Sequence record: OQ626344
Reading direction: 5' to 3' (one strand)
DNA: 64,000 nt
From: Escherichia phage S127 BCL3
Shown: positions 4,706-16,817 of the stretch, piece by piece
How the letters are laid out: each line of letters starts with the position of its first letter
Numbering within the stretch: the stretch's first letter is position 1
The notes under the pieces: generated by a model
Seen by the model: only the letters and a program-made list of their open reading frames with translations
Database searches by the model: none
What the model was told of the DNA's origin: nothing
Translations under genes and position numbers: made by a program

Positions 4706-4739
4706 GAGAATACCTATCATTGTGAGAATGGTTATCATT
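4706..4739. repeat. tandem pair of GAGAAT-N3-TATCATT-type motifs (also at 16666 and 16802)
   Basis: GAGAATACCTATCATT and GAGAATGGTTATCATT adjacent; related copies in second intergenic region. Confidence 0.6.
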
Positions 4740-5010
4740 ACGGGCAATTTAACATAATACCCATTATGCGCACCACTGGCGATACATACAGGGATTGATA
4801 ACATGGGTTACTGTTTACGCATATAACAATTATATTTCTTACTATTTGTGTGGGATATAGTTAGCAACCAATAGATTAGATATTGACCTGCGGACTTCTG
4901 ACCGTCCAGACGTCTAAACGCCCACACAGCAAGGATTATACATACATTTCTGAATGTAAACAAGGCCGCAAAAATGCTACCATACCAGTTTGTAAATTTT
5001 TCATGCAGCA

Positions 5011-5095
5011 CTTGACAAAGAGGAGAAAAACTTGTCTGACACAATGTGACAAAATTACCACTTTTGACACTTTTACCTTTGACGCAATATGACAC
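5011..5095. repeat. iteron-like array of TGACA(C/A) half-sites
   Basis: Six TGAC(A/G)C(A) motifs at roughly 11-24 bp spacing. Confidence 0.45.
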
Positions 5096-5175
5096 AATAA
5101 CGGCTGTTACTATTCCATATCTCACTGTTTACGCATAGGCTGTTTACGCCTGAACAGTTTACACAGAGATGATAA

Positions 5176-5469
5176 GCCATGCCATTCGTTTGCATGAAAA
5201 CAATTAACAAGCTAACAATTAACAAGTTAATAATCTTTCGCTGGCTATGCCAGGTGACTAGGTCACCCCTTCGGGCGTTTCTATGACATAATATAAAAGC
5301 AGGGCAACTATTAGAAGATCTATAGTTGCCTTGCTTGTTATGTCATGATTAACTAAATACAAGGCAACTATGATCTGAGTAATAGATTGCAGAAAAACTA
5401 TCACGGGGGTGATGGTTACTGCTTTTATATTATGTCGCGACTCCGTCGCGCCATGCCATTCGTTTGCAT
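5176..5469. repeat. composite element: 20-bp direct repeats flanking 18-bp inverted repeats
   Basis: GCCATGCCATTCGTTTGCAT at 5176 and 5450; GACATAATATAAAAGCAG at 5285 inverted at 5419; internal GGCAACTAT/ATAGTTGCC dyads. Confidence 0.7.
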
Positions 5470-6082
5470 AGTTGCCTTATTGTTACAGGTAAAACAATTA
5501 CATTATTAATTATTTCTTATCTTTCTCTTAGTCATCTAATGATTCCAGTCAGTATAGTAATGTACAGTAAACATTAGACGACTAAAGATTTCTCTGTTTA
5601 TGATAACTCATCGTGATAATTTCGGACTGTTTACGAAAAATGTTGACACCTGAGCTGATTTATGTTATGCAGTTTACACGAATAATTATTTTATGCAGGT
5701 ATTGACTATTCCGTTATTCTGTGGTTGGAATAAATACTTTGCAGACTATAGAATGGCGTTCGTACGTGAATTCTGAGATCTGTCGGCTATAGTTATACTC
5801 GATTTTTCGCGTAGAACACGCTTTCGATGCTGTGTAAGTGTATGACTTATAAAGATTTTTAGTTGTTGACAAGATATTGGAGATATGCATCAGGTTAAAA
5901 TTTGTGCAATAGCTGCATTACGTGCACTTTTGGGAGAGAAAACGGGTAAAAATGGACTTGCTACCACACAATGAAAAATTATGCAATAGTTATTTTCCAT
6001 GTATATTTGTACAGTATGTGGGATTGATAGCTAGTCAATTATTCCACTTGCCAGGTAGGGCCGTTTATGGTAGGAGAAGAGC

Positions 6083-6112
6083 AGACAAAAAGAAAGGGGC
6101 CTTTAAGCCCCT
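6083..6112 (-). terminator. rho-independent terminator ending the leftward 16.2-6.1 kb block
   Basis: On minus strand hairpin GGGGC-TTAAAG-GCCCC followed by TTTCTTTTT. Confidence 0.55.
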
Positions 6113-6131
6113 TGATAATTCAGTTAAGAAA

Positions 6132-6551
6132 TTATAATGATTCGTATATTTCAAAAATCCGATTTGCCAGGTCGTTACGGTAGCGGAATTTTTCCTCACG
6201 TTTGATCATCAGATCTTTAAAGCCATATTCTTTAAGCACTTCATTAACTTTATGGCGGCATACCTTCATATTATCTTGAGCGTCACCAATAAACTTGTTG
6301 CTGTGGTGCATTGCTTTAATTTCTTCTTCCAGGACCAGGGCAACTACCCGGACCGGATCAAGCTGGTAGGCGGTAACATCGATGCGGCATTGTAGACGGC
6401 TTTTAACGTCTGCCACCGGATATACTGCAACCTCTTCCCCGTCAACATTGACAATAATTAGTTTACCATCGATTTCGAATCCTTTCGCCGCCGGACCGTG
6501 ACAAAAAGCGTTATCAAAGCTATATGCCGGATTATCAGATTTAATGTTCAT
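6132..6551 (-). CDS. hypothetical protein
   Basis: 139-aa ORF; AAGAGGT SD upstream. Confidence 0.6.
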   Translation of the reverse strand: MNIKSDNPAYSFDNAFCHGPAAKGFEIDGKLIIVNVDGEEVAVYPVADVKSRLQCRIDVTAYQLDPVRVVALVLEEEIKAMHHSNKFIGDAQDNMKVCRHKVNEVLKEYGFKDLMIKREEKFRYRNDLANRIFEIYESL

Positions 6552-6694
6552 GGTGTTTTTACCTCTTAGTTAATTTTCTTACAACTTCCCTTCAAAAAGA
6601 ATATAGCAAAACTGCCGATCCCTGTCAACAAGGGATAGCATAATTTTTATGTGATCAAGGGGCTTTATCGCCCCTGACCATGTAACTTGTTGTA

Positions 6695-6958
6695 TTATTT
6701 GTTGCTCATCCAGTTTTCCCAAGCTGCCTGATAATCTGCCTCACTACGGCGGATCTCTTCTTGTTCTTCAAGCCGGATCTCTTCTTCCAGGTACCCCAAG
6801 ATATCGGCTTTTTTGGTCTGGCGTAACATCCAATCGTCTTTTTTGCGAGTAAAGATCTTGTACGCTTTCTCGCAAACTTCTTTTTTGCTACCTTTTTGGA
6901 CTTCAAGAATTCTGTAAGCCATGTACTGAACTAGTTTGAGCTGGTCAAGACGTTTCAT
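6695..6958 (-). CDS. hypothetical protein
   Basis: Start moved to Met29 of track ORF 6695..7042; AAAGAGGAAAAC SD. Confidence 0.5.
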   Translation of the reverse strand: MKRLDQLKLVQYMAYRILEVQKGSKKEVCEKAYKIFTRKKDDWMLRQTKKADILGYLEEEIRLEEQEEIRRSEADYQAAWENWMSNK

Positions 6959-7019
6959 GATGTTTTCCTCTTTATGTGGTCCTGGTTTAGTGGGCCTTTT
7001 GGCCCGTGTCATTATCTTA

Positions 7020-7292
7020 TTACTTACGGCGGCAGAATTCAAGCGTTTTTAATTGATAATCTTCCTCAGCCTGGAGTACAACCGCCTCGATCATTTCGTT
7101 GGCATTGTTGAAGCCATACCCTTTAGCGAACTCGTCCGCACCACCTTCGTGATCATGTTCTGCGTTCATCGCTTCCACGAAATGGAATTCAAGATTATTG
7201 AGATAAGGGCTTGATGTTCCGTCCTCTTTTTCAATGAGATCCCAAATAGTATTAAAACGTGATTCGACTTCTTGGTTAATCCAGCTTAACAT
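7020..7292 (-). CDS. hypothetical protein
   Basis: 90-aa ORF; AGAGAGGAAAAC SD. Confidence 0.6.
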   Translation of the reverse strand: MLSWINQEVESRFNTIWDLIEKEDGTSSPYLNNLEFHFVEAMNAEHDHEGGADEFAKGYGFNNANEMIEAVVLQAEEDYQLKTLEFCRRK

Positions 7293-7346
7293 GGCGTTTT
7301 CCTCTCTTCTGGTTGTTGTGTTGGCACTTTTGCCCCTTCAAGATAA

Positions 7347-7375
7347 ATGTTACCCCACCGCCTGGCAGGTGTCAA
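7347..7375 (-). promoter_or_regulatory. sigma70-like promoter for gene 7020..7292
   Basis: Minus strand TTGACA - 17 nt - TAACAT. Confidence 0.45.
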
Positions 7376-15483: not shown

Positions 15484-15540
15484 GGCGGGAAACATTCCCG
15501 CCTTTTGTGATTAGTTTACTTGAATTTTGCAGCGTGTCAA
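15484..15540 (-). promoter_or_regulatory. sigma70-like promoter plus 5-prime UTR hairpin (unit P3)
   Basis: Minus strand TTGACA - 16 nt - TAAACT, then hairpin GGCGGGA-ATGTT-TCCCGCC. Confidence 0.55.
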
Positions 15541-15546
15541 CAATTT

Positions 15547-15945
15547 TTATTCGTGGGCGCATGTTACAATGTGCTTTTTATAGCCCAGGTGGTTAGCAAG
15601 TGCCGACAAAAACTCTTCTTCATAGATCCAGCCGTTGGCAGTGATCCCCATAGCATTTAATGCGCTCTCAAGTGCTGCATTAGCTTTATCGTAACCGTGA
15701 CCGCTCGCCTTCCCGCCAGTATAACCGTACTTATTGTTCTTGTTGTCGTGAATCCAAAAAACGCAGTATTGAGTGTTCCCGCTGGCGGCGGCATAATACC
15801 GGATCTCAGCTACTTCGTGCAAATTATTGTCATCGTCCAGGCCCACCAGATTATAAGCCTTGTAAAATCCACGATCACGGCGGCAGTTCTTGACATCAGA
15901 AAAAGAAAAGTCCGCATTATCAAAATTAAAGGTAGTGGTTTTCAT
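15547..15945 (-). CDS. hypothetical protein
   Basis: 132-aa ORF; AAGAGGATAAAATC SD. Confidence 0.55.
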   Translation of the reverse strand: MKTTTFNFDNADFSFSDVKNCRRDRGFYKAYNLVGLDDDNNLHEVAEIRYYAAASGNTQYCVFWIHDNKNNKYGYTGGKASGHGYDKANAALESALNAMGITANGWIYEEEFLSALANHLGYKKHIVTCAHE

Positions 15946-16009
15946 GATTTTATCCTCTTAGTGTCTTTTGTGCTTTTAGTGTATTTGGTGTCGGACTGTA
16001 TGTCAATAC

Positions 16010-16207
16010 TTATTTTTTATTAAACCAGTGGTTGATCTGGCCTTTTGTCAGGGCGCAACGATTAAGCTGTTGCCGGGTGTAGCTCTGACCGCGACGGAAT
16101 TTATAAAGGCCTTGCCCGTTGTTGATGGTTACGTCCACCTGGCAAATCATTTGATCGGTGACGGCCTGGCGAGTGTTGCGACGTACTTTAATTCCGTAGG
16201 CGTTCAT
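16010..16207 (-). CDS. small basic protein
   Basis: 65-aa ORF; GAGAGGATAAAAATC SD. Confidence 0.5.
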   Translation of the reverse strand: MNAYGIKVRRNTRQAVTDQMICQVDVTINNGQGLYKFRRGQSYTRQQLNRCALTKGQINHWFNKK

Positions 16208-16259
16208 GATTTTTATCCTCTCTGTTAATTAGTGTGGTGTTGTTCACCTTGCGAGGATA

Positions 16260-16287
16260 AGAATAACAGAACTATCCGAGCTGTCAA
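16260..16287 (-). promoter_or_regulatory. sigma70-like promoter for the leftward small-gene block
   Basis: Minus strand TTGACA - 16 nt - TATTCT. Confidence 0.45.
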
Positions 16288-16611
16288 CCATTAGTTAGAA
16301 TTATTTTTTGGGCAGAATTCTCCAGCCGTCGCCCCTGCCAGGTTAACCATCATTTTTTCGTACTCTTCTTTATGTTCCAACGCTCCCGCCATAGCCTTTT
16401 CAACCAGGGCGGTAGCCTCAGCGTCATTAATCGCTACATTTCCAGGGGGATCATATTACTGTACCTCCTCTTCAGTTGTTGCCTACCCTATAGCATAGCC
16501 CTGCCAGGCTGGCCCCGCCAGGTTGCAACGGTTAGCGCATCAGGTTAGAATTTTTTTGAAAAGTGTTGACAGCGGCCCCGCCAGGTGGCACAATATACCT
16601 ATCGAAAGGAC

Positions 16612-16650
16612 GGCAGGCACCGGTGACGGGGGAGACAACCACCGGGGATG
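16612..16650 (+). repeat. GC-rich conserved element, copy B (core GGGAGACAACCACCGG)
   Basis: Core 16630-16645 within CCGGTG/CACCGG stem; preceded by TTGACA at 16566. Confidence 0.65.
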
Positions 16651-16665
16651 GGCGCTGCATAAAAT

Positions 16666-16681
16666 GAGAACGGTTATCATT
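16666..16681. repeat. dyad motif GAGAACGGTTATCATT
   Basis: Near-palindrome AATGAGAAC-G-GTTATCATT; related copies at 4706, 4724, 16802. Confidence 0.55.
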
Positions 16682-16747
16682 ATCATTTAAAAATTTATGC
16701 AAAAAATCCTTGCTTTCTTTGTCCTGTGTGATACTATAATAACAAGC

Positions 16748-16788
16748 CGGGGCAACAGGGGCCGGGAGACAATCACCGGGGGTGCCCG
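16748..16788 (+). repeat. GC-rich conserved element, copy C (core GGGAGACAATCACCGG)
   Basis: Core 16764-16779; preceded by TATAAT at 16735. Confidence 0.65.
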
Positions 16789-16801
16789 TTATTCTGCAAA
16801 C

Positions 16802-16817
16802 GAGAATGATTATCATT
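16802..16817. repeat. dyad motif GAGAATGATTATCATT
   Basis: Contains perfect palindrome GAATGAT-T-ATCATTC. Confidence 0.55.

Follow-up and report, generated by a model that had tools for sequence, protein, structure and literature searches.

Palindrome arrays indistinguishable by sequence from E. coli Fur boxes in the main non-coding regions of rV5-like and T5-like phages

Introduction

Fur boxes, the DNA sites of the iron-sensing regulator Fur, are already known, including on temperate phages where they stand before cargo genes. In Escherichia coli, overlapping sites offset by 3 or 6 bp are a hallmark of Fur clusters, 83% of which overlap a σ70 promoter (PMC2189734). Those of temperate phages and prophages include the boxes of sitABCD on lambdoid phages (PMC6969025) and predicted or gel-shifted clusters at nohA and nohB (PMC2189734). 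Here we describe a palindromic repeat of Escherichia phage S127 BCL3 (sequence record OQ626344), of which a stretch of 64,000 nucleotides, referred to below as the window, was analyzed. The copies of this repeat, located in two large intergenic regions, very probably are Fur boxes. They share with the E. coli boxes of fecI, fhuA, fecA, fepA-fes, cir, fepB-entC and fepD-entS the sequence, the range of scores and the overlapping sites in a 6-bp register, and differ from them in that they belong to a virulent phage, are gene-free, are placed beside the core promoter, are phased at 29 bp and are known here from sequence. With the boxes of temperate phages they have in common that sites for the host Fur protein are present on phage DNA, but most of the latter precede a cargo or prophage gene, while the virulent phage described here has no such cargo gene at its boxes.

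The genome paper on rV5 describes four transcription units with σ70-type promoters and a 'non-coding' box (PMC3606486), and by PhageTerm the genomes of rV5-like phages were classed as circularly permuted (PMC8407724). In phage T5, the repeats considered below are located in Repeat Region 3, the presumed injection-stop region, with the first-step-transfer shear point at 9618 and the DnaA boxes that were stressed by Davison (10.1101/866236). Fur is mentioned neither in the rV5 genome paper, nor in the Davison preprint, nor in two recent papers on the T5 group (PMC10644984; 10.64898/2026.04.02.716235), and no literature linking Fur to the non-coding repeats of rV5-like or T5-like phages was found in a search that did not reach most subscription journals and the older T5 papers.

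Results

A 21-bp palindrome is confined to two intergenic regions

The window is part of an rV5-like myovirus (genus Vequintavirus). All genes around 6.1-16.2 kb, and those from 17.4 kb on, are on the minus strand. Two large intergenic regions interrupt the genes: hub 1 (about 3.6-5.9 kb) is the junction of two converging units, and hub 2 (16.2-17.4 kb) is a break inside the long leftward gene array. An initial annotation of the window reported that these regions share a motif represented by four 16-mers, and all four are indeed present on the plus strand at positions 4706, 4724, 16666 and 16802. Their recurrence is non-random: even when one mismatch is tolerated, the pattern GAGAAYNNYTATCATT fits exactly 4 sites of the 64 kb, 0.11 being expected from shuffled sequences, none of which reached 4. 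The perfect palindrome GAATGAT-T-ATCATTC ascribed to the last copy was located at 16804-16818. The arms ATGA..TCAT, presented as common to all copies, are found in some of them but not in those starting at 4720 (GTGA) and 16798 (ACGA).

Alignment of the unit around 16802 with distant relatives showed that the 16-mer is only the core of the repeat. The full unit is a 21-bp palindrome, AAATGAGAAT-n-ATTCTCATTT, the axis of which lies 3 bp to the left of the one proposed initially. Six good copies of this unit, starting at 4586, 4702, 4720, 16662, 16798 and 16827, are present in the window (boxes A to F, Table 1), together with a doubtful seventh at 6129; the copies at 4586-4606, 16827-16847 and 6129-6149 had been omitted from the initial list. 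When the window was scanned with a matrix built from other phage genera only, sites of at least 16 bits were found at 7 positions, against 0.25 expected, and all seven belong to the two hubs or their margins. The doubtful site scores as a pair of 11.9 and 11.2 bits in a 6-bp register (6127/6133) with the E. coli matrix described below, and no site of at least 13 bits is present at the equivalent place of phage FV3. The two copies near 16.6 kb follow GGGAGACAA elements in the order that had been described, although at a distance of 27-29 nt rather than directly; two more copies of GGGAGACAA are present elsewhere in the window (7416 and 38031).

The copies match E. coli Fur boxes in reciprocal searches

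As the unit resembles the Fur box, matrix tests were run in both directions. First, we searched 200 kb of E. coli K-12 with a matrix derived from 17 phage copies. The best match was to fecI (28.7 bits), followed by fhuA, fecA, fepA-fes, cirA, fepB-entC and fepD-entS, and these matches coincide with the footprinted or gel-shifted Fur regions of Chen et al. 2007 (PMC2189734). Of the six sites scoring at least 16 bits, five are inside Fur-regulated intergenic DNA, which makes up 0.73% of the 200 kb (P = 1.2e-10). Box C (TGAGAATGGTTATCATTA, copy 4720) is identical over 18 nt to the match in the fecI promoter (ATATGAGAATGGTTATCATTA), and the stretch AAACGAGAATGATTAT of box E is identical to the fhuA operator over 16 consecutive bases. 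This comparison allows for the offsets between genome versions, and the places are confirmed by their gene context. The only top match outside a known Fur-regulated promoter, AATTGAGAATCATTCTGAATT (18 bits; L008:44581-44601), lies in the map / tff-rpsB intergenic region of E. coli K-12 and does not occur in the strong-cluster list of Chen et al.

For the reciprocal search, eight E. coli regions with footprint or gel-shift evidence were brought into register with the classical consensus and turned into a matrix. This matrix ranked the copies at 16666, 4724 and 16802 (boxes D, C and E) first, second and third in the 64 kb, with 18.7, 17.3 and 17.2 bits, respectively, and these three scores fall inside the range of the training sites (14.9-20.1 bits). 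In the complete genome of FV3, strong sites are confined to the same two hubs: the six that correspond to boxes of the window, each with at least 14.9 bits, are all located at 105.3-105.5 kb and 116.08-116.26 kb, and the three highest genome-wide scores of the E. coli matrix are there as well. Matches to the 19-bp consensus GATAATGATAATCATTATC amount to 10-16 of 19 positions in the window copies and to 12-16 of 19 in the eight bound E. coli sites. In addition, the E. coli matrix detected overlapping sites in a 6-bp register at 16660/16666/16672 (box D) and 16796/16802 (box E), as at the doubtful site. Substitutions found among relatives are swaps compatible with Fur binding: GAGAAT changes to GATAAT and TATC to TCTC, both in relative L027, whose box B reads TGATAAT..CTCTCA and contains the canonical Fur hexamer.

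By sequence, the copies are indistinguishable from E. coli Fur boxes. The conservation across genera (see below) and arms that vary without covariation of the RNA type together argue that they behave as DNA sites for a protein, and with the reciprocal matrix tests against footprinted sites they lend support to the early designation of these palindromes as operator candidates, the type of which can now be named as Fur-type. Since no Fur homologue is encoded by rV5-like or related phages, the arms do not covary and the substitutions are Fur-compatible, the motif is most simply read as a site on DNA for the Fur protein of the host. We consider it highly probable that the motif is an enterobacterial Fur box, a Fur-type site for dimers of iron-loaded host Fur (Fe-Fur), and the binder is likely a host protein rather than a phage protein.

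The boxes of hub 2 belong to a conserved unit between co-directional promoters

In hub 2 the boxes are part of a unit composed of a σ70 promoter, a GAGACAA leader, one to four boxes exactly 29 bp apart and usually a second promoter. This unit is kept in five genera of two subfamilies, namely Vequintavirus, Seunavirus, Certrevirus, Mydovirus and, from the other subfamily, Phapecoctavirus, the hosts of which are all Enterobacterales. Conservation of the motif in relatives, a check proposed with the initial annotation, thereby extends to five phage genera. The relatives were GenBank genomes, since anchoring on flanking genes in IMG/VR gave 2-3 loci only; the hub regions match 119-121 GenBank phage records with 80-99% identity, B9-1 being the best match and FV3 being about 92% identical. 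A group of 16-18 GenBank records (MG0656xx; 'Campylobacter phage C7, C9, A112b ...', labelled Campylobacter jejuni) is 88-95% identical to rV5-like coliphages over the hub regions, and the Campylobacter host label of these records looks doubtful.

Box E is unchanged in eight Vequintavirus genomes and present in Seunavirus, Certrevirus, Mydovirus and Phapecoctavirus, across which about 75-90 nt around it are 80-88% identical and the flanks cannot be aligned. The conserved segment is always found inside a gap of about 1 kb in the minus-strand gene array. A pattern scan of IMG/VR provided eleven further units, and the architecture was compared across 17 units. In every one of the 17, 57-63 nt separate the first box from the end of the -10 hexamer of the highest-rated σ70-like candidate promoter (P2), and the hexamer pair is convincing in 16 of them, from 5 genera. 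The number of boxes varies from 1 to 4 and the step in multi-copy arrays is always exactly 29 bp; contig L017, for instance, corresponds to the type of phage KB57 minus one 29-bp unit. Whatever the number of boxes, 12/17 units have, 15-20 bp beyond the last one, a P3-type promoter that is strong and of the extended -10 kind. This distance, counted from the end of the box to the P3 -35, places the centre of the last box near -63 of the promoter. Counted from the start point of P2, the boxes begin after about 50-55 nt, and 11-20 bp separate their end from the P3 -35. The module is doubled in the window, where P1, a leader and box D are followed by P2, a second leader and boxes E and F. Deep conservation and a fixed place between co-directional promoters are established directly, as are the identity of sequence with Fur operators and the confinement to two hubs.

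Two candidate promoters that would cover boxes, TTGAAT-18-CAGAAT on the minus strand and a plus-strand TATAAT at 4608, were rejected as unconserved, the latter being TATAAC in most relatives. The coordinates of all features are listed in Table 1.

Table 1. Boxes, promoters and repeats in and near hubs 1 and 2 of the window
Feature	Coordinates	Strand	Remarks
Box A	4586..4606	+	GAATGGGAATACTTCTCATTT; 17/20 vs family palindrome; 23.2 bits (other-genera matrix); kept in 6 Vequintavirus relatives
Box B	4702..4722	+	Copy initially placed at 4706; 19.9 bits
Box C	4720..4740	+	Copy initially placed at 4724; 3-bp overlap with box B, starts 18 bp apart
Possible extra Fur-type site, doubtful	6129..6149	-	3' end of open reading frame 6132-6551(-); 21.5 bits (phage matrix)
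Leftward promoter, left edge of hub 2	16260..16287	-	TTGACA-16-TATTCT with TG; serves downstream minus-strand array
P0 and P1, tandem σ70-like, rightward	16523..16594	+	TTGCAA-17-TAGAAT; TTGACA-17-CACAAT with TG; block almost invariant in genus
GGGAGACAA element of leader 1	16630..16638	+	Repeat family D4
Box D	16662..16682	+	Copy initially placed at 16666; 16/19 match to GATAATGATAATCATTATC on minus strand
P2	16710..16740	+	TTGCTT-19-TATAAT, or extended -10 reading TGaTACTAT
GAGACAA leader 2	16764..16797	+	GGGAGACAATCACCGGGGGTGCCCGTTATTCTGC; sequence-level conservation
Box E	16798..16818	+	Copy initially placed at 16802; most conserved box; overlapping site 6 bp upstream (16796)
Box F, degenerate	16827..16847	+	Exactly 29 bp after box E; repeat family D5; 23.6 bits
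P3, weak candidate	16859..16887	+	TTAGCA-17-GACAAT; 11 bp after box F
Repeats of ~65-74 nt downstream of P3	16935..17115	+	..GAAAACGAAAAACAGATCGAGTACT..; families D1, D3

The boxes of phage T5 and their wider occurrence

Arrays of the same palindrome are present in phage T5 (AY587007.1; L153). At 9472-9631 the boxes coincide with features annotated as copies 1-4 of 'direct repeat C' and as palindromes E, G and I, and they score 29.0, 20.3, 15.6, 32.6 and 25.3 bits with the matrix of the rV5 group and 17.0-18.0 bits with the E. coli matrix. Judged by their sequence, these T5 repeats are Fur-type boxes. The T5 copy AAATGAGAATCATTATCATTT differs from box 1 of phage ukendt in the centre base only. 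Both in T5 and Salmonella phage S130 and in the rV5 group, arrays of the AAATGAGAAT.ATTCTCATTT palindrome lie in a large untranslated region, which in T5 and the rV5 type is placed between converging units and is better conserved than nearby genes. The two types differ in that the T5 arrays, with a spacing of 23-46 bp, are located in the terminal repeat at the first-step-transfer boundary and are accompanied by paired DnaA boxes, whereas the rV5-type genomes are circularly permuted and have their array between σ70 promoters. In the 64 kb of the window we found 5 matches to the DnaA box (TTWTNCACA) against 8.1 expected, one of them in hub 1 and none in hub 2, and no pairs. Because they lack such DnaA boxes and belong to circularly permuted genomes, the rV5-type hubs fall outside the T5 injection-stop type, even though the repeat is common to both. 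Salmonella phages S130/S131 (L102:3380-4150) also contain boxes, and those of S130 adjoin two perfect DnaA boxes.

The exact palindrome AATGAGAATNATTCTCATT was found in at least 120 IMG/VR viral contigs (L037-L114 and further loci), and two or more strong boxes were present in 45 of the 78 loci examined. One group among these contigs, about 110-120 kb in length, represents T5-like phages and is matched by 437 GenBank records. One locus (L105:1809-1889) contains three perfect copies of AATGAGAATNATTCTCATT, 30 bp apart, and overlapping tandem copies with a 16-bp step were observed at L013:13592 and L022:5209.

Coding capacity and other repeats of the hubs

In agreement with the initial description of both regions as intergenic, the open reading frames (ORFs) annotated over them are not conserved. 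That of 4061-4408(-), annotated in A51.2 as a 'putative membrane protein', contains stop codons in each of the relatives. The frame of 16532-16816(-) (FV3 ORF182), annotated in some records over boxes D and E, meets a stop at codon 7-8 in KB57 and ukendt (Mydovirus, Phapecoctavirus) and at codon 27 in GAP31 (Seunavirus). Both ORFs are probably over-annotations, and both hubs are indeed non-coding. No tRNA-like elements were found. A fixed genome end or packaging site near 4578, hinted at by the start of some records, was dropped because rV5-like phages are circularly permuted (PMC8407724).

The leaders before the first box (16604-16660 and 16748-16797) contain GAGACAAnCACCG and TGCCCGTCATTCTGCA, which are kept across the five genera. 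Four direct copies of a GCCCCGCCAGGT-type motif are present at 16331-16590, two of them within the P0/P1 spacers, and an inverted copy is located at 17576-17591; the promoter spacers of GAP31 hold similar GGCCCTGGG and CCTGGGGC strings. Seunavirus and Mydovirus have an extra σ70-like promoter upstream of P2, the transcript of which would be GC-rich, about 110 nt long and have CGCCGGTAGTTCGGAC at its end (GAP31, L002:1262-1410), and in the window similar strings, GCCGGTAGCGAC and GGAGTGCTGCC (the latter twice), precede box A at 4546-4590. P3 reads into the ~65-nt repeats, analogues of which are found in GAP31, SSE121 and KB57. In other genera (L002:1620-1830) the ~65-74 nt repeats have the form AAAAATTTTTTCG..ATACGATTT..TCGATCGAGAAC, with small internal palindromes and no Rfam match. 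These repeats could be iterons or repetitive RNA.

Hub 1 is likewise rich in repeats. Between 3900 and 5900 it contains four copies of CTGTTTACG (4803-5635), three to four of CCTGAAGAG (3932-4480), the exact 20-nt repeat GCCATGCCATTCGTTTGCAT at 5176 and 5450, and a perfect 18-nt inverted repeat (5285-5302 / 5419-5436). The block 4740-4830 is nearly invariant in the genus, and the palindrome CATAATACCCATTATG within it follows immediately after box C.

Discussion

The results presented above point to a phage that may sense or manipulate the iron status of the cell, but they are no proof of it. Fur occupancy and any effect on the promoters are what we infer from the sequence. Taken as a whole, the proposal that host Fe-Fur gates transcription of the hubs through the Fur-type boxes is the likeliest of the readings considered, and one for and against which we see equal weight. 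It would work as follows. P1 and P2 would fire toward the boxes. When iron is plentiful, Fe-Fur would sit on the phased boxes, where it would block RNA polymerase coming from P2 and also cover the A/T-rich region upstream of P3. When iron is scarce the sites would be free, and rightward transcription would enter the repeat-rich non-coding DNA, against the leftward arrays. Hub transcription would thereby be iron-dependent, whether by repression or by activation.

Several observations weigh against a role for Fur of this kind. Position 7 of the box is an invariant G where the Fur consensus has T, which may reflect a slightly different specificity, and the 29-bp phasing differs from the 6-bp register of Fur clusters. 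The boxes are located off the core -35/-10 of any conserved promoter, being downstream of P2 and upstream of P3. P3 itself is weak in the window and absent in Certrevirus and Phapecoctavirus, and no gene is present downstream of P2 or P3. Finally, a block of 370 bp (16560-16930) is almost invariant in the genus and its boxes are no better conserved than their neighbours; as the whole block is conserved, phylogenetic footprinting within the genus is weak. In hub 1, 23% of the columns are variable in the boxes against 33% in their surroundings, a difference that is not significant (p = 0.14).

Two alternatives, each of which we regard as unlikely, leave room for Fur. According to the first, the boxes would bind Fur without regulating anything in cis and serve as a decoy: their replicated copies (hundreds of genomes, each with 6 boxes) would soak up Fur, derepress iron uptake and so feed the ribonucleotide reductases of the phage, which encodes the iron-dependent NrdAB and NrdDG. 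Fur titration by multicopy Fur boxes is the established principle of the Fur titration assay (FURTA), and the phage resembles FURTA in having many strong boxes on a high-copy replicon, with the difference that FURTA is a laboratory assay; we know of no natural Fur decoy of such kind. The lack of a downstream gene and the near-consensus strength of the boxes fit a decoy, and their number shifts between lineages from 1 to 4 in exact 29-bp steps, as if the dose mattered. A pure decoy, however, would not need positions that are strictly conserved relative to P2 and P3. Moreover, Fur is abundant in E. coli, with thousands of molecules per cell, and for this reason only late, high-copy replication could titrate it. 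T5, finally, has the same boxes and yet degrades host DNA early, so that derepression of host genes would be pointless there (10.64898/2026.04.02.716235).

According to the second, the boxes would be an architectural landing pad common to the rV5-like phages and T5, at which a bound host protein, Fur or another, acts as roadblock or insulator between converging units, or takes part in DNA entry, replication or recombination. The location of the T5 arrays at the first-step-transfer boundary, within a converging non-coding region, is in line with this, as are hub 1 of the rV5 type, which is likewise a converging junction (PMC3606486), and the better conservation of the region than of neighbouring genes in both groups. 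A fixed injection-stop site would nevertheless make no sense in the circularly permuted genomes of rV5-like phages (PMC8407724), the window has no counterpart of the DnaA box pairs by which the T5 region is defined, and an action of the T5 repeats in the injection stop is undemonstrated (PMC10644984).

It is still less probable that the palindrome is the operator of a phage-encoded DNA-binding protein with Fur-like specificity. The invariant G at position 7, where Fur prefers T, would suit such a protein, and a 'transcriptional regulator' (PHROG 639, window 1734-2039) is kept across the Vequintavirinae at 2.5 kb from hub 1. This protein is, however, small, acidic and helical, with nothing matching it in Pfam or PDB and nothing convincing in NCBIfam. 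Agreement with genuine Fur operators at about 29 bits, with identities of 16-18 nt to fhuA and fecI, would then be a remarkable coincidence. T5-like phages hold the same boxes, and no search was made for a protein common to both groups.

A function at the RNA level, for instance as hairpins of a non-coding RNA from P2 that bind a protein or act as decoy RNA, is very improbable and essentially excluded. It would account for the conserved promoter 57-63 nt upstream, and the predicted folds show either CAUUCU paired with AGAAUG or a box folded back on itself. The sequence variation does not follow such pairing, as G7 is invariant while its partner is A in 10/17 copies and the variants A5, C6 and G6 are uncompensated. 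RNAalifold gave no consensus structure for the GAGACAA leader, folding z-scores were -0.3 to -1.5 in 5/6 sequences and mostly no better than those of shuffles, Rfam gave no match at the gathering threshold and one at chance level (E = 0.67), and the hub-1 copies are without promoter and leader.

The least probable alternative, a non-functional A/T-rich chance repeat or piece of a small gene, either the mini-ORF MRTVIIII or the ORF182-type gene of some annotations, is likewise essentially excluded: the motif permits the in-frame reading ATG AGA A.. ... ATC ATT and some records have an ORF over boxes D and E, but the copy number far exceeds expectation, the unit is conserved across genera and the minus-strand ORF is cut short in KB57 and ukendt. 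A mini-ORF or leader peptide (ATG AGA ... ATC ATT) was also rejected, as L027 has boxes without the ATG and most copies have no Shine-Dalgarno sequence.

What seems to be new, within the literature we could search, is that virulent phages from two lineages unrelated to each other have phased, gene-free arrays of Fur-type operators in their main non-coding regions. It is possible, although somewhat doubtful, that at least two unrelated virulent lineages on Enterobacterales, the rV5/phi92-like myoviruses and the T5-like siphoviruses, keep Fur operator arrays and routinely exploit Fur, be it as an iron gate, as a repressor to be titrated or as a marker of the injection stop in T5. If this is true, the long-unexplained 'DRC/palindrome' repeats of T5 gain a candidate binding protein, and a concrete candidate can be named for the injection-stop repeats, a question since the 1980s. 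If Fur binds the boxes, a strictly lytic phage would be wired to the iron sensor of its host without an iron-related cargo gene. Iron is normally limiting in the gut and in infected tissue, the settings in which therapy and biocontrol make use of rV5-like and T5-like phages; therefore, an iron switch or a Fur decoy could alter the performance of these phages.

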